Part shown: positions 15,629-53,774 of the stretch, one piece after another | Numbering within the stretch: the first letter of the stretch is position 1 | Layout of the letters: the number at the start of each line of letters is the position of its first letter | Source of the DNA: a virus | Taxonomy: Duplodnaviria > Heunggongvirae > Uroviricota > Caudoviricetes | Length of the DNA stretch: 64,000 bases | Direction: 5' to 3' (one strand) | Virus record (IMG/VR): IMGVR_UViG_3300043080_000590 | Location: 258,386-322,385 of that record | Position numbers and translations under genes: made by a program | The notes under the pieces: model-generated | What the model saw: only the letters and a program-made list of their open reading frames with translations | Database searches by the model: none | Told to the model about the DNA's origin: nothing

Positions 15629-18136
15629 TTACTTTTTTAATAATCTCATATCAAACTTTTTAATTTCCCAAGCTTCTTCTGTTCTATATAATTTTTCTCT
15701 TGTTCTGGCGTGTCTACGAAGCATAGGTGTATAATCTTGAAAATCAAACACAATAGCTCTTTTCTTTTCTTTACCTGTTTCAGGATTTTTATATAGTCTT
15801 AATACTCTACCCACTCTTTGAAAAGCTCTTGTGGAACTACGACCACCACCTGCTAATATCAAAATCTCTAAGTTAGGTATGTCAAGTCCTTCATCTGCTA
15901 TTGTACTACCTATTAAGATTTCTACAAAACCATCTCTTACACCTTGAATAACAGCCTTTCTTCTTACAGCATCATCCTTACCTGATAAAAATTCTACATT
16001 AGCAATTCTAACTAATTTATCTTTACCTGTCTTATCATCAGTTACTTGAACTGCTTTTTTTACTATTTCTATCTTTTTAGATAACATTTTTAATATTGTT
16101 TCTCCGTGTTCTACTTGTTGAATTAATATTAAGATAGGTGCGTGTTTTACTTCTCTCATTTTAACTGCTATACTAACAACAATTTGATTTCTTTCTATAT
16201 TATTAGCAATAGCTTCTTTATAAACTTTATTATAAGATTTACCTTGAAAAACTCTTTTGTAAGGAATAAAGTAAATAGTACAAGGCACTAAATATCCCCA
16301 TTCAATAAGTTTGCTTGCTGAAATATCATTTTCTTCTTTTCTTCTATCTAGTGCTGCTTCTAATAATAAATCAGCACCATCTTCTCTCCACGGAGTGGCT
16401 GATACACCAATTCTATAATAAGCATTTTTAGCCCATTTAGATATTTCTACAAATGTATTAGAACCTATATGATGACATTCATCAAATAAAATCATATTAG
16501 AATCTTTAATATCTTCTTCTGTTGTTGATTGAGCAGAATAAACAGTTATATCTCTTTTCTTGTTTATGCCACCACCAACAATACCTACTTCTTCCCCTAA
16601 AAACTTTCCAATTTCATCTTTTAGCTGTGTACATAAAGTTAATTTATCAGCAAAAATTGAAACAGGTCTAACATTAAACTTATCAATTAATCCTGCCATT
16701 ATAAATGTATTATGCGTTACTATAAAATCTTTACAAATAAATGTATGTAATGGACTATCTACTGCTATACACTTCATTTCAGACTTTGTAGGTAATGGAG
16801 TTATTGAAACAATTTTTAAAGCATTATAATGATGATTTTTGCCTATTCTTCTATTCTTAAATCTTTCAGTATGTTTTTTTGATGTAAATAATTTATCATC
16901 ACAGCCACGAACATGAATATACCACGTTTTGTTTCTATATCTATCACTATTAATTGTTCTTTTATCTAATACAATTTTCGCTCTATATCCAAGACTATTT
17001 AATAAAAATTGTACATCTTCTACTAATCGTTTGCTAACGGAACAATAAGTAATATGTCCTTTACTATTTACAGTACCATCTGTATCAAATAGTCCTTGTA
17101 AAAGTGCTATTCTGTCATTAACATCAGAAAATTTATATTCTTCGGGAATAAATTTATCTTCGCTTTTAATTCTTCCAAAAACCTTATGTATATAATCTCT
17201 TAAATTATCTTTTTTTCCACCGCAACCATATGTGTATTGAATCCTGTCTTTATGTCCATTTTTAAATTCTCCACCAAATTGTCTTGCTAAATCTTTTACT
17301 TTATTAATTACATCTTCCTCTGTATTTGTAAAAGTAATTTGTCTTTGAGAAAAGCCACCATCGCCTAATAATGCTCCCAATAAATATGGCGGTAAAAATA
17401 AATCTTTTTTCTCAAACTGAATTGGCTTACATACGGGAATGCTTAGAACTAAATTTCTTCCTGTTTTGATTTTATGATTGTTTAATATTTCTTCAACAGT
17501 TTTTACTTGCCATTTATTTTTTGAAAGATTGTCTCTTGTTGCAAATTTCCATAAATGATTTTTACAACATTTAATAGTTGTACCATCGTTAAATACTATT
17601 TCATATTCTTGTTGCTCACCTTGTGGATATTCTCCGATAACAGTTGTTTTATCTCCATTTTCATCAAAAACAATACTTCCTACGTGAATATCTTTTAATG
17701 GAACAAAACCATCAGGGGTTAGAATTGGCGTATCTAAGGGAATCGACTTGCCGCCGCCCGTACTGACCCTTACTATTTCCCTGTTTGAGGCGTTATCAAT
17801 TATTTTTTGTTGATAATCTCTCGCTTTTAACTCTACTTTTGAACCATCAGGTAAAGTCAAATATTCTTGTAATGCAAAATTAGCATTTTGTTCGGGTACT
17901 ACTCTTGTATCTGTTATTTTATATCCAATATTATTTTCTTCTAATATTTCATATACATAATTTAATAAACCAGTATAGGTCTTTTTTGTTTTTCTATTGT
18001 ACAAATGTCTTATTTGAATATATTCACAACCAAATTCTTTTACTTCAAAACTTAATTTTTCCCATATCTTTAATTCAATATCTTTTGAAAAACCAATCAA
18101 CTTTGAATATACATTATCAATTATAATTTCTGCCAT
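15629..18136 (-). CDS. SF2 (DExH) DNA/RNA helicase precursor containing an intein
   Basis: Walker A STGGGK|...|T is split by the intein. Motif II is DECHH and motif VI is QRVGRVLR. The extein is about 489 aa. Confidence 0.8.
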   Translation of the reverse strand: MAEIIIDNVYSKLIGFSKDIELKIWEKLSFEVKEFGCEYIQIRHLYNRKTKKTYTGLLNYVYEILEENNIGYKITDTRVVPEQNANFALQEYLTLPDGSKVELKARDYQQKIIDNASNREIVRVSTGGGKSIPLDTPILTPDGFVPLKDIHVGSIVFDENGDKTTVIGEYPQGEQQEYEIVFNDGTTIKCCKNHLWKFATRDNLSKNKWQVKTVEEILNNHKIKTGRNLVLSIPVCKPIQFEKKDLFLPPYLLGALLGDGGFSQRQITFTNTEEDVINKVKDLARQFGGEFKNGHKDRIQYTYGCGGKKDNLRDYIHKVFGRIKSEDKFIPEEYKFSDVNDRIALLQGLFDTDGTVNSKGHITYCSVSKRLVEDVQFLLNSLGYRAKIVLDKRTINSDRYRNKTWYIHVRGCDDKLFTSKKHTERFKNRRIGKNHHYNALKIVSITPLPTKSEMKCIAVDSPLHTFICKDFIVTHNTFIMAGLIDKFNVRPVSIFADKLTLCTQLKDEIGKFLGEEVGIVGGGINKKRDITVYSAQSTTEEDIKDSNMILFDECHHIGSNTFVEISKWAKNAYYRIGVSATPWREDGADLLLEAALDRRKEENDISASKLIEWGYLVPCTIYFIPYKRVFQGKSYNKVYKEAIANNIERNQIVVSIAVKMREVKHAPILILIQQVEHGETILKMLSKKIEIVKKAVQVTDDKTGKDKLVRIANVEFLSGKDDAVRRKAVIQGVRDGFVEILIGSTIADEGLDIPNLEILILAGGGRSSTRAFQRVGRVLRLYKNPETGKEKKRAIVFDFQDYTPMLRRHARTREKLYRTEEAWEIKKFDMRLLKK
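16709..17746 (-). other. Intein (346 aa) with LAGLIDADG homing endonuclease domain inside the helicase P-loop
   Basis: It begins with Ser (SIPLDTPILT...) directly after GGGK. It ends ...FIVTHN and is followed by Thr+1, which restores GKT. The two LAGLIDADG motifs are LLGALLGDGG and LLQGLFDTDGTV. Confidence 0.7.
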
Positions 18137-18158
18137 AACTTTTTCCTTTCCTTGTAAC

Positions 18159-21215: not shown

Positions 21216-21545
21216 TTGTTGAACTTCATTATCTGTTTCTTCTGCAATTTCTCCCATTTCAGCTTTAACTGCTTCTTTATATTTATTAAAAAACATAGTA
21301 CAATAACTACCAAAGTTTGAAAAATCCGTGCCCATGCTACAATTCGGATTGAAAGGATTGTTAGAATCATTTCCTGGAAAGCAACTATCTGAAATTGTAA
21401 CATTGTTTTCATTTTCAAAACTTTTAATTGCAGTAGAAAAGTTATTCATTACTCTTATTAACTCATTTCTACATAAATCAAATTGACCTTCTAATTCTTG
21501 TGTATTAATCGCAGAAGTTTTCATCAATCTTTTCATTTTTAACAA
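21213..21545 (-). CDS. Hypothetical protein (110 aa)
   Basis: ORF in an intergenic island. It overlaps the spurious ORF 21197-21418 in the other frame. Confidence 0.4.
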   Translation of the reverse strand: MLKMKRLMKTSAINTQELEGQFDLCRNELIRVMNNFSTAIKSFENENNVTISDSCFPGNDSNNPFNPNCSMGTDFSNFGSYCTMFFNKYKEAVKAEMGEIAEETDNEVQQ

Positions 21546-22143
21546 CCTCTCTATTGATTATTTTATAAATAAATATACTACCTAACGAATTTCCCAAAGT
21601 TACAAATAAAATAAATGATATAGAATAAATATTTATTTTATTTGCTAAAAATATATAAAACATATCAGCAACACAGTGTTCAGCACCAATTAAAATAAAT
21701 ACTGCTATACATAATATTACTGCTACTATTTTCATTATTGCTTCATTACTTTTTTTATATACTTCAACTGCAATAAATATTAAAATACCGCATAAAAATG
21801 AAAAAAATAAAATTTCAAAAATAGTATAATTTAATTTCAACTCAACTATTGTTTCTATATTAATGGCTTTTATTTTACAAGTATTTCTATAACACAATGC
21901 TGTAATAAAACATCCAAGCAGATTTCCTATCCATATAATTAATAATTCTAAGGAATTTTCATTCTCAGTAATATAACCAATTTTCCCTGTATACAAATCT
22001 AATTTAAAAAAAAGTATTGTTAGTAATCCTATGGAAAATAAAAAACTGCCGATAATTTTGTCAGTGGATAAGAATACGATACTTGCAATACTAATCATAA
22101 TTCCTGCTAGAAATGCAGATAAAAATAAATTAAGAAATTTCAA
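21505..22143 (-). CDS. Polytopic membrane protein (about 6 TM), possible superinfection-exclusion or abortive-infection type
   Basis: 212 aa that are strongly hydrophobic. It is divergent from the replication module. Confidence 0.45.
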   Translation of the reverse strand: MKFLNLFLSAFLAGIMISIASIVFLSTDKIIGSFLFSIGLLTILFFKLDLYTGKIGYITENENSLELLIIWIGNLLGCFITALCYRNTCKIKAINIETIVELKLNYTIFEILFFSFLCGILIFIAVEVYKKSNEAIMKIVAVILCIAVFILIGAEHCVADMFYIFLANKINIYSISFILFVTLGNSLGSIFIYKIINREVVKNEKIDENFCD

Positions 22144-25483: not shown

Positions 25484-26830
25484 ATGGACAATGTAATAGA
25501 GAAAAAGTTTTTAGCATACTTAATGTATGATAAAAAGTATATTTCTAAAGCAATAAATACAATAGAAATAACACCCAAGCATTTACAAACAACATATGCA
25601 GTATATAGTTTAATAAGAAAATATTTTGTAAAATATGGTGTTATTATTTCTGATGATGCAATAAATAGTTCTTTTAAAAAGAATAAAATTGATGATAAGA
25701 CGATAATAACGTATAAATCAATTTTTTCAGATATAAAATATTTTAATACTGATGAATTTTCAGATGGTGAATTTGAATCTATTTGTGATGAATTAGAAGA
25801 TAATTATAAAAGATTCGAAGTATTAGAATTAGCTGAATCAATTATTACTAAAGGAAGTAATTGTAGTGAAAAATCTTTCGATGAATTAAAAACTCAAATA
25901 AGTAAATTGTCTGTTCGTTTGAATACAGATAAAAGTAATGTAAAGGAAGAGGGTTCAATCCAAGAAAGAATAAAAGCAAGAAAAGAAAGATATGAGGAAA
26001 TAAAGAACAATCCTAGTATGATTGTTACTTATCCCACTGGATTTAGTAGAATTGATGATGAAAGCGGTGGATTTGCACCAAGTGAACTTATTTACATAAT
26101 AGGTAGAAAAGGTGATGGTAAATCTGTTTTAATGCTTAACTTAGCACACAATATGTGGATAAAAGGATTAAATGTTATATTATTTAGTTTGGAAGTTCCA
26201 CAAGAAGCTTATGAAAGAAGATTTGATGCAAGAGCTGCTGGTATTTCAAGTAATGGATTAAAATTTGGCAAGTTATCAGAAGATGAAGAAGAAGTATATA
26301 ATGATTATTTGCAAAAATTAAGTGAAGGCTTATCTATCAATGGAGATAAAGTTGGTACAATGTATATTATTGACGTACCACGTATGTGTACTCCATCTTT
26401 TTTAGCCGAGAAAGTAAAAGAAGTAGAATTAAAAATGGGAATAACATTTCATGTAGTTATTTCTGACTATGCAGGTATTATGCAACCAGATATGAAATTT
26501 GGTGAATTAAGATTAGACCAAGCAGAAATAGCATTGGAATTAAAACAATATGCAAGAACAACAGATAAGGTAGTAATAACCGCCGCACAGATGAACAGAA
26601 TAGGTAAAAATCAAAAGAAAACAGAAACAGATGCTATTGCTGAGTCTGATGCTATTGCAGACCATATAGATTGGGGTATTGCTATAAAAAAAGTTAGTGA
26701 ACAAATTGGCATAATAGAATCATTTAAAACAAGAGATGCTGCTCCTTTTGAGTTTCATTTTAATAGAAAGTTTAGTAAAATGTTAATTGAAGAATTAGAT
26801 GATGATATTAGTAACTGGGATAAAATGTAA
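25484..26830 (+). CDS. dnaB: Replicative DNA helicase, DnaB family
   Basis: Walker A GRKGDGKS, Walker B IIDV..., and the H4 motif ITAAQMNR. It has a DnaB-like N-terminal domain. Confidence 0.8.
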   Translation: MDNVIEKKFLAYLMYDKKYISKAINTIEITPKHLQTTYAVYSLIRKYFVKYGVIISDDAINSSFKKNKIDDKTIITYKSIFSDIKYFNTDEFSDGEFESICDELEDNYKRFEVLELAESIITKGSNCSEKSFDELKTQISKLSVRLNTDKSNVKEEGSIQERIKARKERYEEIKNNPSMIVTYPTGFSRIDDESGGFAPSELIYIIGRKGDGKSVLMLNLAHNMWIKGLNVILFSLEVPQEAYERRFDARAAGISSNGLKFGKLSEDEEEVYNDYLQKLSEGLSINGDKVGTMYIIDVPRMCTPSFLAEKVKEVELKMGITFHVVISDYAGIMQPDMKFGELRLDQAEIALELKQYARTTDKVVITAAQMNRIGKNQKKTETDAIAESDAIADHIDWGIAIKKVSEQIGIIESFKTRDAAPFEFHFNRKFSKMLIEELDDDISNWDKM

Positions 26831-36208: not shown

Positions 36209-37762
36209 ATGTTGAGATTGACAACAAAAGGGAAAATTGCCATTTTAATTTTGCTTTTAATTATTATTGGCGTAGCAGGATTCTTTGGTGTAAAAAAGGG
36301 TTGGATTAAGACAGGTAATATTAAAGAAAAGATTGAAAATATTACTTCTTCTGTTGGTTCAACAAGTAAGGCAAGTAAGAGTAAAACAACGCAGGAAAAG
36401 ACCAATGTAATCAATTTATCTTATGACGAATGGACAGGGTGGAAAGAGATTTTAGATGCTCAATCAAGAGGATATTATGATGAAGAAGGTATTACTGTTA
36501 ATATCAGTGTAATGAATGATGCTACTGATAGTTCTAATGCTTTAATTAGCGGAGATTTAGATGCAGCAGGTTATACTGTTAATAGATATGCTTTCTTAAT
36601 GGATAAATTCAAGCAGAACAATGTTGATGTTGCAATGCCTATTATTATTAATAGAAGTAGCGGAGGTGATGGCATTATTGCTGATGCTGATATCAATTCT
36701 ATTAAAGATTTAGTAGGTAAAAAGGTTGGTGTTCCAAGATTTAGCGAAGCACAAACTTTAGTTGAATGGTTTGTTTCTAAGTCTGATTTAACAGACGATG
36801 AAAAGAGTAAAATAGAATATGTATATTTTGATACACCTGACGAAACTGCAAGTGCTTATTTCGCAGGTGAAATAAATGCTGCTGCTACTTGGCAACCATA
36901 TTTAACACAAGCACAAGAAAGCACAGATAGTCATATTCTTATTGATACAAGCAATGCTACAAGTCTTGTATTGGACGGTATTGTATTTAGACAGGATTAT
37001 CTTGATGTAAATGCAGATACAGTTGAAAAGTTCATCAGAGCTACTTTAAAGGCTTATGATGATTACAACGATACTGATTATACAGCATTAAGAAATAATA
37101 TGTCTATGTTTTCAAGTATGAGTGATGAAGAAATTGCTGATACATTACCTGATGCAACATTATTAAATTGGAATGAAAATATGGAAGTATTAGCCGATGA
37201 AGCTGTTATTCTTTATAGAGATATGTCTAATATTTGGAATGATTTAGGAGAAACAGCTTATCCTGATATGGCAGAACAAGCATTTACTACTACATATATG
37301 AGTGCTTGTGAAGATTTAAAAACTGCTGATATAAAAACTGTTTCAGTTACAGCAGAACAAAAGGAAGAAGTTAAGAATAATTCAGATAATTATGATGCTT
37401 TAATAAATGCACAAGCAACAATTAACTTTAAGGCAAATTCAGCAGTATTTGCAGACCAAGAAGAAGCTGCTAAAGCATTAGACGAATTTGTTGATACTGC
37501 TAAAATGCTTGATGGTGCAATTATTATGATTGAGGGTAACTCAGCTAATACAAATGGTGCTACTGAAAATAGTGAGTTTGATATTAAACTTACAGAACAA
37601 AGAGCTAAGACTGTTGCTAATTATTTCATTAGTAAAGGTATTGATAGTTCAAGATTTATTACTGTTGGTAATGGTATTGGTAATCAGATAGCAGATAACT
37701 CCACAGAAGAAGGTAGAGCTAAGAATAGAAGAACTGATATTAAATTCATTATTGCTGAATAA
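36209..37762 (+). CDS. Fusion protein: NitT/TauT-family substrate-binding domain (NMT1/SsuA-like) plus C-terminal OmpA-like peptidoglycan-binding domain
   Basis: It has an N-terminal TM anchor. The SBP region is …DAAGYTVNRYAFLMDK…. The OmpA-C motif is TVANYFISKGIDSSRFITVGNGIGNQIADNSTEEGRAKNRRTDIKF. Confidence 0.65.
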   Translation: MLRLTTKGKIAILILLLIIIGVAGFFGVKKGWIKTGNIKEKIENITSSVGSTSKASKSKTTQEKTNVINLSYDEWTGWKEILDAQSRGYYDEEGITVNISVMNDATDSSNALISGDLDAAGYTVNRYAFLMDKFKQNNVDVAMPIIINRSSGGDGIIADADINSIKDLVGKKVGVPRFSEAQTLVEWFVSKSDLTDDEKSKIEYVYFDTPDETASAYFAGEINAAATWQPYLTQAQESTDSHILIDTSNATSLVLDGIVFRQDYLDVNADTVEKFIRATLKAYDDYNDTDYTALRNNMSMFSSMSDEEIADTLPDATLLNWNENMEVLADEAVILYRDMSNIWNDLGETAYPDMAEQAFTTTYMSACEDLKTADIKTVSVTAEQKEEVKNNSDNYDALINAQATINFKANSAVFADQEEAAKALDEFVDTAKMLDGAIIMIEGNSANTNGATENSEFDIKLTEQRAKTVANYFISKGIDSSRFITVGNGIGNQIADNSTEEGRAKNRRTDIKFIIAE

Positions 37763-49062: not shown

Positions 49063-50019
49063 TTGATTTTAGAAAATCAAACAGTTGTTATTCAATGGAC
49101 GGGGCGTAATAGAAAAGAATATGAGGAATTAGGATATATCTTTACTAAATTTGGAGACCCGTTAGAAATTAAAGTAGAACATTTACATAAAGGTTCTCAT
49201 GAAGAAGTTTGGTATGAATGTGATAATTGTCAAAAAAAAGATAAAAGAGAATATAGAAAACTTCTTAAACAAGATATACATTATTGTAAAAAATGTTGTA
49301 CAATTAGACGAGAAGAAACTTGTATGAAAAAATATGGAGTAAAAAATACATTTCAGAGTGAAGAAAAAAAGGAAAAAATGCGACAAACTTGGAATAGAAA
49401 ATATGGAGTAGATAGCCCTTTAAAAAATAAAGAAATACACGATAAAGTAGAAGCAACCTGTATGAAAAAATATGGGGTAAAAAATACTTTTCAAGTAAAA
49501 GAGTTTCAAGAAAAAGGTAGACAGACAATAATTGAACGCTATGGAGAAGATTATTATAAAGAAAAAGCACTTACAATGATAAGAGCTTTAAATAATAAAA
49601 ATAGCTCAACAAGAACTTCTAATAATCAAGCAAGTATTTGTAATTGGACAAATGGTACTTTAAATTATAGAGTAAATAAATATTCTTTAGATATTAGAGT
49701 AAATGATAATTTGTATATTGAATACGATGGTTCAGGACATACATTACCTGTTATTTTAAAACAAGTTTCTAAAAAAGTTTTTAAGAAAAAAGAATTATAC
49801 AGAAACAAATATATGGAAAACTTGGGATATAAACTTATAAGGGTTATTAATCGTCAAGATGTTGATTTAAATAAAGATGAATTTTTAAAGTTATATAATT
49901 TCTGTGTTGATTATCTTAAAAATACAAATTATAAATGGATAAAAATTTATTATGACAAACAAATTGTTATAAGTAATATTTTTAAAAAAACTTTTGAAGA
50001 GGTGATAAATAATGAGTAA
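49063..50019 (+). CDS. Putative free-standing homing-endonuclease-like protein: N-terminal triplicated KYGVxNTFQ modules plus C-terminal Vsr/DUF559-like (PD-(D/E)xK) nuclease domain
   Basis: Three repeats of C(M)KKYGVKNTFQ... are present. The C-terminal segment YIEYDGSGH...ENLGYKLIRV resembles the DUF559/Vsr fold. It abuts the gyrB start, and the stop and start overlap. Confidence 0.45.
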   Translation: MILENQTVVIQWTGRNRKEYEELGYIFTKFGDPLEIKVEHLHKGSHEEVWYECDNCQKKDKREYRKLLKQDIHYCKKCCTIRREETCMKKYGVKNTFQSEEKKEKMRQTWNRKYGVDSPLKNKEIHDKVEATCMKKYGVKNTFQVKEFQEKGRQTIIERYGEDYYKEKALTMIRALNNKNSSTRTSNNQASICNWTNGTLNYRVNKYSLDIRVNDNLYIEYDGSGHTLPVILKQVSKKVFKKKELYRNKYMENLGYKLIRVINRQDVDLNKDEFLKLYNFCVDYLKNTNYKWIKIYYDKQIVISNIFKKTFEEVINNE

Positions 50020-50329
50020 TAATTATGATGTTGGGCAAATATCGTCTTTGGAAGGATTAAAATCCGTGCAATGTAAGCCAGCCATGTATGTAGGTTCTAC
50101 CTCCCAAGATGGTGTAAACCAAATAATTTATGAAGTATGGGATAATTCATTTGATGAATACAATGCAGGGTATGGAAATAGTGTTGATGTTCTTATTGAT
50201 AAGGACAATTATATAACTATTGAAGACCACGGTAGAGGTATTCCTGTTGGACCTCATGCTACTTGGAAAAATCCCGATGGTACACCGCAAGATACATTAA
50301 CAGGCGTATTAACAAGATTACACTCAGGT
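50012..50329 (+). CDS. gyrB: DNA gyrase subunit B, exon 1 (ATPase N-terminus, ends ...TRLHSG)
   Basis: Sequence ...VQCKPAMYVGSTS...EVWDNSFDE...EDHGRGIPV... is GyrB-like. The ORF stops 5 codons into intron 1. Confidence 0.8.
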
Positions 50330-50661
50330 AAGGGAATGATTGCTTGAGTATAAAACCACTTTAATTGAATTTTATATAAATAAAAATAATATAAAATTGC
50401 TGGAAACCTCTAAGATTTAAATTACTACAACATAATCGGAAATGATAGGTGTGAAAGTTAAAAAAATTTAAAATACATGAGCAATCAGCAGCCAAAATTC
50501 TAAGTATGATTAAGTTATATATGAATAAGGTTCAACGACTATCGAAAACGTAAGAAATATTTTTACAAGTGAGTAGAGTACATATATGAAAATATATGGA
50601 AACGAGTGGCACATTTTTTATGTGAAGATATAGTCTAATTTATATTGAAAAATATAAGTTG
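50330..50661 (+). ncRNA. Group I intron 1 (ORF-less, 332 nt)
   Basis: P1 forms between exon CUCAGGU and the IGS GCUUGAG at 50343-50349, with a U-G wobble at the splice site. Core elements are P aattgctggaaa (50393), Q aatcagcagcc (50481), R gttcaacgactatcg (50529) and S aagatatagtct (50624). The 3' terminal nucleotide is G, and the spliced product reads LHSG|GKLF. Confidence 0.8.
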
Positions 50662-51658
50662 GGTAAATTATTTGCTAATGGGGAATCAGGATATTTTAGT
50701 ACGATAGGCACGTATGGTCTGGGAGCAAAACTTACTAACGCTTTATCTGATGATTTTATCGCTAAAGTGAAAAGAAATGGTAGAATTTATCGGCAAACAT
50801 TTAAAAAAGGTAGACCTACCTCTGATGTTGAAATTATTGGTACTGTTGATTTAAATGATACAGGAACTAAAATTACGTTTCATCCTGACTCTACAATATT
50901 TAAAACGACAATTCAACCAAATGATAAAAAATTACAAAACAGACTTGATGAAATAACTTCTTTAAATACTAATTTAAAAGTTAATTATAAAAATGAATTG
51001 GCTAATGTAGATACAACATTTTATTATCCTAATGGTATCGCTGATTATATAAATAAGAAGTTGTTAAAAGATAAAAAACTTTTGTTCGAAGAACCAATTT
51101 ATTATTCAAGTGAATACGTGGATAATGATGAAACTATTAAAGTTGAATTTTCTTTAATGTATGTTGATGATGTGGAAAGTAATGAAATTATTAAAACATT
51201 TGCTAATAATGTATCAACAAAAGAACACGGTACACATTTAGTAGGTTTTAAAGAGGGTTACAAAGAAGCTATTAATCAATATTCAATAAGTAAAAAATGG
51301 ATAACCGAACCCATTGAGATTAAATATCTAATGGATAATATTTGTTTAATTGTATCTGTTAAGTTAAGAGAATGTGAGCTTGATGGACAAACAAAAAATA
51401 AATTAGGTAATTTAATAGCTAAAGATGGTGTTGCTAATGTTGTTAAAGAATACTTTAATAAATTAAGTAAAGAACAACAAGTAGTAATACAAACAATAGT
51501 TGAAAGAGCTAATAAAGTAAAAGAAGCAGAAGAAGCTGCAAGGAGAGCAAGAATAAACACAAGGACTGCTAATAAAATAAAGAAAATAGCATTACCTGGT
51601 AAACTTGCTGATTGTAGTAGCAATAAAGGATATAGTGAGTTATTCTTAGTTGAAGGAG
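50662..51658 (+). CDS. gyrB: DNA gyrase subunit B, exon 2 (…GKLFANGESGY…LADCSSNKGYSELFLVEG)
   Basis: GyrB ATPase-transducer and the start of TOPRIM. The ORF-track ORF is 50659-51666. The exact 3' boundary is uncertain by 1-2 nt. Confidence 0.75.
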
Positions 51659-52038
51659 TAGCCTAAGGCAGAAACTCCCTATTAAGTAGTAATATTTAAT
51701 AGAAAATTTCTTTAATTGCTGGAAGTTCCTAAAATTAATTATACCTTATAAAAGGTTGCGAAAGTAGAAAAAAATAATTAAATGATATATGGTGATAGTA
51801 AACCTAAGTATTATAAGAAATAATAATTTCTAACAATGGATAATCAGCAACAAAATATATAAATAAAAAATATATATGTTCAACGACTATGCTTTAAAAA
51901 GCAGTAGGATAAAAGTTTATCTGAAATGGGAAAATACTTAAATGTTTAAGTATATGATATAGTCTATGCACTAATGAAAGTTAGTGAAAAACTAAATGTT
52001 TTTATTATAGTTTAACAAACTATGGTTAATGTAATTAG
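51659..52038 (+). ncRNA. Group I intron 2 (ORF-less, about 380 nt), same subfamily as intron 1
   Basis: Core elements are P aattgctggaag (51711), Q aatcagcaac (51843), R gttcaacgactatgc (51879) and S atgatatagtcta (51954). The 3' end is G at 52038. The 5' junction is placed by protein homology (EG|DSAGG). Confidence 0.7.
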
Positions 52039-52106
52039 ATTCTGCTGGTGGTTCAGCAAAGAACGCAAGATATAGAGAATTTCAAGCTATATTACCATTA
52101 AGAGGT
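52039..52106 (+). CDS. gyrB: DNA gyrase subunit B, exon 3 ((D)[22 protein letters not shown])
   Basis: 68-nt micro-exon encoding the invariant [16 protein letters not shown] segment. It is absent from the ORF track. Confidence 0.75.
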
Positions 52107-52416
52107 AAGGAATTTGCCTCTACATTTCTAACTGTTTGATATAACAGGGTATGCTTAAAAACGATTTAAATTCGTTTTAAGGCTTGCTAACGAGGAAAGC
52201 TTAACATTATACATATAAGTCAAAATATGTTCAGGTGAAGTCAATCTCGTGCGAAATATAGCGATTTAATAATCGCTGTTCGTGTATCGACTATCCTAAG
52301 TTAGATTAGGAGTACAGGTTTTATAAAACTTGGAAATGGAATGACCGTTTTAAAAAGTTTGACAAACTTATAGGCTAAGAAATAGTCAGTGCTATTAGAA
52401 ATAATAGATTATAATG
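52107..52416 (+). ncRNA. Group I intron 3 (ORF-less, 310 nt), different subfamily
   Basis: P1 forms between exon AGAGGU and the IGS GCCUCU at 52116-52121, with a U-G wobble at the splice site. The 3' terminal nucleotide is G at 52416. The spliced product reads LRG|KILNTEKA. Confidence 0.7.
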
Positions 52417-53216
52417 AAAATCCTTAATACTGAAAAAGCCAGTTTTGAAAAAGCATTAAATTCAGATGTTATTAAATCATTTATTGCTGCAATAGGAACA
52501 GGTATAGGAAAGAATTTTAATATAGATAAATGTAGATATGATAAAATAATTATGATGTGTTTTACAGAAGATACGCAAGTAAAACTTTTAAATGGTACAA
52601 ATCCAACTTTTAAAGAATTAGTTGAAATGGAAGAAAAAAATCCCAATCAAACTTATGAAGTTTATTCAAAAAATAGTAATGGAAAAATTGTACACGGTAA
52701 AGCACATAACCCAAGAATTACAAGTTATATTCACGAATTAGTTGAGTTGACATTAAATAATAATGAGGTTGTTAAATGTACAAGAAATCATTTATTTATG
52801 CTTAATGATGGTACATATAAAGAAGCTCAATTATTAACGACAGAAGATTGTTTAATGAGTATGCAGGAAGAATGTAATAGGATTATTAATAAACAAATTG
52901 TTACTCTTGACCATTTAATTCCTGTCTATGATATAACAGTAGAGGAATATCATAACTTTGCTTTAAATAGTGGTGTGTTTGTTCATAACTGTGATGCGGA
53001 CGTTGACGGTTATCATATCTCAAACTTAATTTTAACTTTTATATATAATTATATGCGACCTTTAATTGAAAATGGTTATATATATTTAACAGTACCACCT
53101 CTTTATAAAGTTATTACTAAAAAGGAAAGTCTTTATATAAGAGATGATATTGAGTTAAAAGAATATAAAAAGAAACACCCAAGAGAAAATTTAGAAGTAC
53201 AAAGATTTAAGGGGCT
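52417..53216 (+). CDS. gyrB: DNA gyrase subunit B, exon 4 (TOPRIM), containing a mini-intein
   Basis: Sequence KILNTEKASF...IGTGIGKNF...KIIMM[intein]CDADVDG...PPLYKV...QRFKGL. The ORF-track ORF is 52414-53250. Confidence 0.8.
52558..52989 (+). other. Mini-intein (144 aa, no endonuclease domain) in the GyrB TOPRIM motif
   Basis: It starts CFTEDTQVKL with Cys1. Block-B-like CTRNH is present. It ends GVFVHN and is followed by Cys+1. Removing it restores IIMM-CDADVDG, matching the conserved IIMTDADVDG motif. Confidence 0.75.
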
Positions 53217-53587
53217 AACTCTTTGTCCTGACCCCTATTCATTTTATTAAGTAAGTTTAATACTTGCAAACGGAAAGAGCCTAAGTATGTTTAGAAAAAT
53301 ATTTTTGTAATAATTTAAAATATTTTTGCAATATAAGGTAATCCCGTGGGAAGATATTTAGAAAATATTTTTTTAGAAAGTGTTTTTTAGAAAGTGTTTT
53401 TAAATAATTATTTTTTAAATATAGCCTGTACAGACTAAAGGTAGGAAACCTTGTAGGAATAAATTAAATTCCGAAACAGTGAATAGTTATATTATGTTGG
53501 TATTGTTTTTATAAATCTTTAAATACTGTTAAAATAATATAAATAAAGATATAGTCGGCGGTTTATAGAAATATAAATTAAACGCAT
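53217..53587 (+). ncRNA. Group I intron 4 (ORF-less, about 371 nt)
   Basis: P1 forms between exon AAGGGGCU and the IGS GACCCCU at 53230-53236, with U53216 wobble-paired to G53230. An S-like aagatatagtcgg lies at 53546 and R-like gtacagactaaa and P-like aatcccgtgggaag are present. It contains a 15-nt tandem repeat at 53377-53406. Confidence 0.65.
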
Positions 53588-53774
53588 AGGAGAAATGGAT
53601 TACGAAGAACTCAAAGTCACTACAATGGACCCAGCAACAAGAGTGTTAGAAAAGATTGCTATTGATGATGTTGAAGAAATGGTAGAAGCATTTAATGTAT
53701 GTATGGGAAGTAATGTAGAGATAAGAAGAAAATTTATTGAAGAAAACGCTCAGTCAGTAAATTTAGATAATTAA
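53588..53774 (+). CDS. gyrB: DNA gyrase subunit B, exon 5 (C-terminus (L)GEMDYEELKVTTMDPATRVLEKIAIDD...FIEENAQSVNLDN)
   Basis: It matches the conserved GyrB C-terminus GLGEMNxEQLWETTMDP...RRxFIEENA. It is absent from the ORF track. The 5' boundary is uncertain by 1-3 nt. Confidence 0.7.

Follow-up and report, generated by a model that had tools for sequence, protein, structure and literature searches.

What a block of 346 residues is doing inside the ATP-binding loop of a helicase is the question raised by the gene at positions 15629..18136 (minus strand) of the 64,000-nucleotide stretch analyzed here (positions 258,386 to 322,385 of IMG/VR virus record IMGVR_UViG_3300043080_000590, Caudoviricetes), which is referred to as the window. 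The original prediction read this gene as a superfamily 2 (SF2) DExH helicase interrupted in its P-loop by a "Ser1 intein" with a LAGLIDADG endonuclease. By sequence homology and predicted fold, the insert is an intein, in which the Hint splicing domain encloses a double-motif LAGLIDADG homing endonuclease. Its residues further suggest that it is very likely a P-loop member of the class 3 (Trp-Cys-Thr [WCT]) intein family and that Cys326 would act first in splicing. The insert (residues 131 to 476, 17746..16709 on the minus strand) lies, as predicted, between the Walker A Lys and Thr; it starts with Ser (SIPLD) and ends with His-Asn (VTHN), and Thr+1 comes next.

The identity of the host protein was examined with the insert excised in silico. 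The resulting 489-residue protein (predicted mass, 56.0 kDa) contains GGGKT, DECHH, SAT, and QRVGRVLR, so that motifs I (GxGKT), II (DExH), III (SAT), and VI (QRxGRxxR) are all present, in two RecA-like domains. The coincidence of a precise in-frame removal with restored helicase motifs is far beyond chance. The spliced sequence aligned without a break over the junction (residues 100 to 435) to archaeal XPBII (5tnu, 3e-27) and also aligned to AfXPB/Rad25 (3e-24) and T4 UvsW (2e-11); the PHROG DNA helicase family phrog_16 matched it at 3.7e-75. The Pfam ResIII match (1.2e-12) begins only past the insert, at profile position 37, and is followed by Helicase_C. The NCBIfam XPB model matched at 2e-12, which is under its equivalog cut-off, and the protein is therefore described as an XPB/UvsW relative and not as an assigned orthologue. 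Together, the motifs, the Pfam domains, and the alignments bear out the predicted DExH assignment and identify the host protein, at the level of sequence, as an XPB/UvsW-like SF2 DNA helicase.

A full-length search identified a natural counterpart of the spliced product. This intein-less allele (P0004) has 489 residues, the predicted spliced length, and is 95% identical. Its gene sits on contigs L002 and L003 among neighbors arranged as in the window (an amidase, a MerR-like regulator, a small open reading frame [ORF], the helicase, and three further ORFs). The extein DNA is colinear with the intein-less gene, gap-free, and 92.1% identical to it, the sole length difference being the 1038-nt insert; in the intein-less gene (L002 6001..7470), the P-loop insertion site lies at about nt 390, between ACTGGAAGTGGAAAA and ACATTTATGATGG. 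The predicted restoration of GGGKT and of a 489-residue helicase thus exists in nature, and both this allele and the XPB/UvsW alignment show that the insert is in frame and that cutting it out exactly gives back a conserved host protein. The proportions of nonsynonymous and synonymous differences between the extein and the intein-less allele (pN, 0.026; pS, 0.285) show that the extein is under strong purifying selection, judged against that allele.

A 502,690-bp JGI contig encodes a protein identical to the 835-residue precursor (P0001). When the gene was compared by megablast with 50,697 phage records, no match was obtained, and IMG/VR, when scanned, yielded nothing closely related (best match, 44% identical). 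The nearest phage relative of the helicase is gp221/gp223 of Bacillus phage G (57% identity), and the phage is a large, low-G+C, distant relation of phage G. The precursor and its host portions are as follows.

15629..18136, minus strand: precursor gene for the 835-residue helicase-intein fusion (95.8 kDa); ATG start; a single uninterrupted ORF, stop codon included
18144..18153, minus strand: Shine-Dalgarno-like AAGGAAAGGA, 7 nt 5' of the ATG, assigned by sequence inspection only
17747..18136, minus strand: N-extein, residues 1 to 130, colinear with residues 1 to 130 of the intein-less allele
17747..17764, minus strand: Walker A residues STGGGK at the end of the N-extein (GGGK, residues 127 to 130)
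16709..17746, minus strand: intein, 346 residues (131 to 476), 39.8 kDa, from SIPLD to VTHN (Ser1 to Thr344-His345-Asn346)
15632..16708, minus strand: C-extein, residues 477 to 835; the first residue is Thr+1 (ACA), which completes Walker A (GGGK-T)
16469..16483, minus strand: helicase motif II, DECHH, in the C-extein
16394..16402, minus strand: helicase motif SAT, in the C-extein
15797..15820, minus strand: helicase motif VI, QRVGRVLR, in the C-extein

The insert was compared with proteins of known structure. A phmmer search against PDB sequences matched gp41-1 (6.4e-8 and 2.9e-6), the Mycobacterium smegmatis (Msm) DnaB-1 intein (6bs8, 1.5e-6, with matches in the N-terminal as well as the C-terminal splicing region), and Mycobacterium chimaera (Mch) DnaB1, while the middle of the insert matched the PI-PfuI, I-DmoI, and PI-SceI endonucleases. 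The top match, 6riz, is the engineered gp41-1 variant C1A/F65W/D107C, and wild-type gp41-1 (6qaz) scored lower; because the WCT residues of 6riz are engineered (PMC7664689), this match is no evidence that gp41-1 naturally carries WCT. Both predicted LAGLIDADG motifs (YLLGALLGDGGF and ALLQGLFDTDGTV) were found, each with its acidic end, and Pfam LAGLIDADG_3 matched the insert in two stretches (1.6e-17). A hidden Markov model built from 27 family members scored the insert at 534 bits.

An AlphaFold2 model of the intein, built from the alignment of these 27 members (A1), had a mean predicted local distance difference test (pLDDT) score of 91.3 and a predicted template modeling (pTM) score of 0.90. 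The top Foldseek match in the PDB was PI-SceI (E=4e-18; TM score, 0.74), followed by TliVMA, PhoVMA, and PI-PfuI, which are whole intein/endonuclease proteins, and then by I-DmoI and the mini-inteins gp41-1 and NpuDnaE. Hint-fold homology, on which the original prediction had staked itself, is thus found both among PDB sequences (gp41-1 and Msm DnaB-1) and in the model, and the fold includes blocks A, B, F, and G. The endonuclease has sequence and fold matches to I-DmoI, PI-PfuI, and PI-SceI, in keeping with a monomeric, double-motif enzyme whose two LAGLIDADG helices sit in an alpha-beta-beta-alpha-beta-beta-alpha pseudo-dimer fold. The junction residues His B:10 (His64), His345-Asn346, and Thr+1 are all present and vary little or not at all among family members. 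From this anatomy, homology, and fold, we infer protein splicing of the precursor and, likewise, endonuclease activity of the intein, the parts of which are as follows.

17432..17746, minus strand: Hint N-terminal lobe (blocks A and B), beta-strand in the AlphaFold2 model
17549..17569, minus strand: block B, CCKNHLW, containing His64 (B:10) and Trp66 (B:12)
16847..17431, minus strand: LAGLIDADG homing endonuclease domain (Pfam LAGLIDADG_3; PI-PfuI and I-DmoI matches)
17351..17386, minus strand: LAGLIDADG motif 1, YLLGALLGDGGF, ending LLGDGG, acidic residue retained
17069..17107, minus strand: LAGLIDADG motif 2, ALLQGLFDTDGTV, ending FDTDGT, acidic residue retained
16709..16846, minus strand: Hint C-terminal lobe (blocks F and G), with His334 after Cys326
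16757..16780, minus strand: block F, EMKCIAVD, containing Cys326 (F:4)
16709..16720, minus strand: block G, VTHN, with Thr344 (G:5), His345, and Asn346

To which splicing class does the intein belong? Class 3 inteins carry a WCT triplet with Ser or Thr (rarely Cys) at position +1 (PMC2807308, PMC5222942, PMC7891396), and this triplet is present here as W66 (B:12), C326 (F:4), and T344 (G:5), together with Thr+1. A HMMER alignment placed W66 opposite Trp67, C326 opposite Cys118, N346 opposite Asn139, and His64 opposite His65 of the Msm DnaB-1 intein. The roles of these residues have been named for that intein, which neither splices nor undergoes N-terminal cleavage once Cys F:4 is mutated (PMC5222942). 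An operational definition of class 3 (no Cys at position 1 and a Cys at C2:4) has been applied elsewhere, with 1701 inteins conforming to it, 82.5% of them with LAGLIDADG motifs (PMC7891396); the window intein conforms as well. The "Ser1 intein" of the original prediction was correct as to the residue, but the class 1 mechanism that the term implies is improbable, since the WCT signature is that of class 3.

To extend this analysis, residues were tabulated for approximately 126 homologous intein copies in the best 120 database matches, a few of which have N boundaries misregistered by two residues. HxW, Cys F:4, and Thr-His-Asn were universal, and the +1 residue was Thr in 122 copies and Ser in 4. 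Residue 1 varied widely (Ala, 86; Cys, 11; Pro, 10; Arg, 7; Ser, 4; Gly, 2; a few others). Within the 27-member alignment, His B:10, Trp B:12, Cys F:4, Thr G:5, and the terminal His and Asn were all invariant. In the clade of 818-residue helicases (P0002-P0026), the otherwise near-identical P-loop inteins begin with Ala in 16 cases and with Cys in 7, and the inteins of P0012 and P0013 are 99.4% identical across an Ala1/Cys1 difference. An Ala-Cys switch needs two base changes, which suggests that position 1 either toggles freely or is exchanged via recombination. Variation at position 1 alongside a constant internal Cys is what the class 3 mechanism predicts, and Ser1 is probably an incidental bystander and not a required nucleophile.

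These assignments suggest the following pathway. After translation of the 95.8-kDa precursor, Cys326 of block F, assisted by His64 (B:10), Trp66 (B:12), and Thr344 (G:5), would attack the Lys130-Ser131 peptide bond to form a thioester branched intermediate. The N-extein would then be passed to Thr+1, cyclization of Asn346 would free the 39.8-kDa intein, and an O-N shift would yield the 56.0-kDa helicase with an intact GGGKT P-loop. The freed intein would function as a homing endonuclease that cleaves the P-loop coding sequence of alleles lacking the intein, of which that on L002 is an example, and repair of the break would copy the intein along with flanking extein sequence.

The extein DNA on either side of the insert forms a divergent tract, which has the following two parts.

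17747..17836, minus strand: upstream part of the divergent extein tract, co-conversion-like, adjoining the intein
16559..16708, minus strand: downstream part of the divergent extein tract, with mismatches to the intein-less allele

Mismatch density relative to the intein-less allele was 22.5% within ±60 nt of the site and 6.6% elsewhere (Fisher p=1.2e-7). The 60-nt interval that spans the insertion site (extein nt 361-420) held 14 mismatches, and intervals wholly downstream (extein nt 421-540) held 9 and 7, compared with a median of about 4 for the remaining intervals. The 30 nt before the intein (17747..17776, minus strand; AGGGTCAGTACGGGCGGCGGCAAG) have a G+C content of 60%, versus 26% for the window, encode Gly-Gly as GGC GGC, and are foreign-looking. 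Clustered mismatches and a G+C-rich flank are the pattern expected of flank co-conversion during homing from a divergent donor; with the exact empty-site allele, this scar suggests that an uncultured phage population has recently undergone homing. The intein most similar to the one studied here, that of P0031 (72% identical), was ruled out as the donor of the flanks, with 47% identity in the 30 nt upstream.

Related inteins occupy the same position in other ATPases. Homologues of 45 to 52% identity follow the P-loop GK (GK/T or GK/S, with the slash marking the insertion point) in DnaB, ClpX-like AAA+, AAA_24, and PhoH proteins, and the intein matched intein-containing terminase PHROGs (phrog_19299, 6.5e-42). 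By tblastn, relatives of 35% identity or less were found in 562 deposited phage genomes, in genes annotated as helicase, primase-helicase, or terminase. Thus, no fewer than six different P-loop ATPases harbor inteins of a single family at the same GK/T position. Many related intein matches are named "DarB-like antirestriction" in RefSeq, a name that is probably due to confounding by the intein. PhoH-like and AAA+ proteins (P0063, P0072-P0075, P0081, and P0115-P0120) carry two or three inteins of the family per polypeptide, and a second PhoH site, GFLPG/PQPLD, holds Pro1 inteins. Within the window, a DnaB-like helicase (25484..26830, plus strand; Pfam DnaB_C, 1.5e-23) has an uninterrupted P-loop, GRKGDGKS, which is a potential unoccupied target for the same intein family.

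Several points weigh against a class 3 homing intein. Ser1 does not fit the original class 3 criterion, under which position 1 is not Ser, Thr, or Cys (PMC2807308), and Ser at this position is a competent class 1 nucleophile. The Pfam check suggested with the original prediction matched LAGLIDADG_3, but the Hint/intein models PF14890 and PF07591 gave no match to this copy at E<=0.1, although Pfam Hint/intein models do match some of its relatives. NCBIfam matched only through intein-containing full-length equivalogs, far under their cut-offs; Hint homology therefore comes from the PDB phmmer matches and structure prediction. With regard to homing, no donor of the divergent flanks turned up, and the divergence could instead stem from local selection for flanks compatible with splicing. 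Splicing, its route, and endonuclease activity are, moreover, predictions from sequence and modeled structure. It is thus conceivable, although we consider it improbable, that the intein is functional but splices by the class 1 route, as a revertant or a dual-pathway intein on a class 3 scaffold. In that event, Ser1 would undergo an N-O acyl shift, Thr+1 would attack the ester, and the WCT residues would be inherited but auxiliary. Ser1 also occurs in three other family members, including the closest relative, P0031, and Cys1 occurs in eleven; of the 37 WCT inteins listed by Tori et al., 3 have Ser or Cys as the first residue, and how these splice was left open (PMC2807308). What speaks for Cys326 instead is that most homologues have Ala, Pro, Arg, or Gly at residue 1 and that Cys F:4 is invariant. 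Furthermore, F:4 is Cys and not the Asp that assists class 1 splicing, B:7 is Cys and not Thr, and grafting or removing such residues was not neutral in tested inteins (PMC7664689, PMC5222942). The Ser1 codon, TCG, is also one base away from the Ala codon GCG. The idea that Ser1 works as a second nucleophile, in which case nature would have produced a dual-pathway intein or one reverted to class 1, is rated just as doubtful.

Still less probable, and in our view quite unlikely, is a decaying or splicing-dead intein, with a precursor that is never spliced and an inactive helicase whose role is covered by another phage or host helicase. Nonsplicing class 3 relics do exist (e.g., Arsp-FB24 Arth_1007 [PMC3196547]), and the endonuclease motifs are eroded in relatives P0042 and P0047. 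In the window, however, the ORF is unbroken and retains each of the splicing residues (His B:10, Trp B:12, Cys F:4, Thr-His-Asn, and Thr+1), and both LAGLIDADG acidic residues are kept. Compared with the P0031 intein, the ratio of nonsynonymous to synonymous rates (dN/dS) was 0.14 for the Hint N-lobe, 0.22 for the endonuclease, and 0.06 for the Hint C-lobe, values that are rough since dS is about 1 and near saturation, which is a further point to be held against the reading preferred here. The intact catalytic residues and the purifying selection nevertheless argue that intein function has been retained. No second copy of the helicase was found within the 64-kb window, and the strong constraint on the extein described above likewise disfavors an inactive helicase. 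That the insert is no intein at all is hardly credible, whether it is taken for a LAGLIDADG endonuclease gene, intron-encoded or free-standing, or for a domain that the helicase gained in one lineage. Group I introns also encode LAGLIDADG endonucleases, and at least one group I intron is present in the window, in gyrB. The insert, by contrast, is stop-free and in frame with both exteins, Rfam gives no intron there, and a Hint domain whose junction residues are canonical surrounds the endonuclease; on the basis of the reading frame, the Hint domain, and the Rfam result, an intron-encoded endonuclease was rejected. A folded domain between the Walker A Lys and Thr would, in addition, abolish ATP binding unless removed. 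A class 3 P-loop intein remains the reading that we prefer.

The original prediction also placed a second intein in gyrB, and a mini-intein does occur there, in the Toprim motif. The GyrB homologue (about 50012..53774, plus strand) is a mosaic of at least five coding pieces. The ORF at 52414..53250 contains a Cys1/Cys+1 mini-intein of about 144 residues (about 52558..52989) in the Toprim DxD motif (IIMM/CFTEDT...VFVHN/CDADVDG). One gap in the coding sequence holds a group I intron (50356..50657; Rfam RF00028, 52.6 bits), and a second contains a partial, sub-threshold intron match (51891..51984, 24 bits). A third gap lies at 52110..52416, and the last coding piece is 53595..53774. The gene probably holds more than one group I intron. 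Directly 5' of gyrB is a 318-residue ORF (49063..50019, plus strand) with Cys-rich motifs and a repeated KKYGVKNTFQ unit, which may be a free-standing homing endonuclease or similar. Elsewhere in the window are a formate/nitrite transporter homologue (Form_Nir_trans, 4e-25; 21505..22143, minus strand), also present on the related contig L002, and an NMT1/THI5-like plus OmpA-domain protein (36209..37762, plus strand); these are unusual auxiliary genes for a phage.

The window element is a new, fairly divergent member of a well-characterized kind of intein, a finding that is true but ordinary, and all that sets it slightly apart is the pairing of Ser1 with a WCT scaffold. Current understanding is unchanged by it, and its uses are modest. 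For annotation, the 835-residue ORF is best recorded as an intein-containing XPB/UvsW-like helicase with a 489-residue mature product and not as one long helicase. The locus is a further, well-supported example of a class 3 P-loop intein, here in an SF2 helicase of a jumbo phage. The Ser1/WCT combination, with the free variation at position 1, provides cheap material for studies of the class 3 splicing mechanism. If Ser1 does work as a second nucleophile, the Ala, Cys, Ser, Pro, and Arg relatives would form a natural series bearing on whether class 3 arose by divergence or convergence, which is disputed (PMC7664689), and the series could test a hydroxyl nucleophile as a redox-insensitive bypass of the oxidation-sensitive Cys F:4.

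How does this intein compare with known systems? Of the solved structures, PI-SceI (the yeast VMA1 intein) and PI-PfuI share with it a Hint domain with a nested double-motif LAGLIDADG endonuclease; they differ in being class 1 inteins with Cys1/Cys+1, an extra DNA-recognition region, 15 to 18% identity, and other hosts and sites. With respect to position, an insertion between the invariant Walker A Lys and Thr is the "classic" P-loop intein site (PMC5050341), and it is the site occupied here. The mycobacteriophage terminase intein TerL1-a is likewise inserted between the Walker A Lys and the nucleophilic Thr (PMC5050341), but its host is a packaging ATPase and not a helicase.

A parallel in a named phage, with similar ones in other jumbo-phage helicases, is gp251 of the Erwinia jumbo phage Rebecca (MK514281; L012 1048..3630), an 861-residue "putative RAD2/SF2 helicase" with a homologous LAGLIDADG WCT intein at P-loop GK/T (GKGK/ATTLDT...EHLW...QCITV...FIVTHN/T) that is unannotated in the record. 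The Rebecca intein is about 33% identical to the window intein, begins with Ala, and is carried by another SF2 subfamily. The metagenomic homologues P0002-P0053 resemble the window gene in helicase, insertion point, and intein family, and most have Ala1 or Cys1; the closest, P0031, shares Ser1. Several of them have a second intein at motif II (DE/CHH), either contiguous (P0027 and P0037) or apparently split (P0031), whereas motif II of the window helicase is uninterrupted, unlike that of these three proteins and of phage G gp221/gp223. In the phage G homologue (L001 2983..5615), the P-loop is intact and the coding sequence is broken into two genes at motif II. There, gp221 ends ...MFDE/CLSYDSKV..., gp223 carries ...TLVHN/CHHLPS, and a 73-residue ORF, gp222, lies between them; by its sequence, the break resembles a natural split intein of the trans-splicing kind. 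This motif II intein is contiguous in P0027, P0037, and P0055, and another, apparently split one occurs in P0031 (L011).

The class 3 inteins themselves, probably its mechanistic kin, have been known from phage helicases since 2009-2010 (PMC2807308, PMC5050341). They were described from helicases of phages and prophages; most were noted to lie in the P-loop of an ATPase (PMC2807308), and phages have been proposed as their source (PMC4031507). The inteins of mycobacteriophage Bethlehem DnaB, Msm DnaB-1 (6bs8), and M. chimaera DnaB1 share with the window intein the WCT triplet, the His-Asn end, and Thr or Ser at +1. Like it, this group resides in helicase-type ATPases, mostly at the P-loop and most with LAGLIDADG motifs (PMC2807308, PMC7891396). 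Sequence identity between the window intein and the solved class 3 inteins is low, and Msm DnaB-1 and Mch DnaB1 are mini-inteins without an endonuclease. The Bethlehem, Msm, and M. chimaera inteins begin with Ala or Pro and reside in DnaB, whereas the window intein begins with Ser and resides in an XPB/UvsW-like SF2 helicase.

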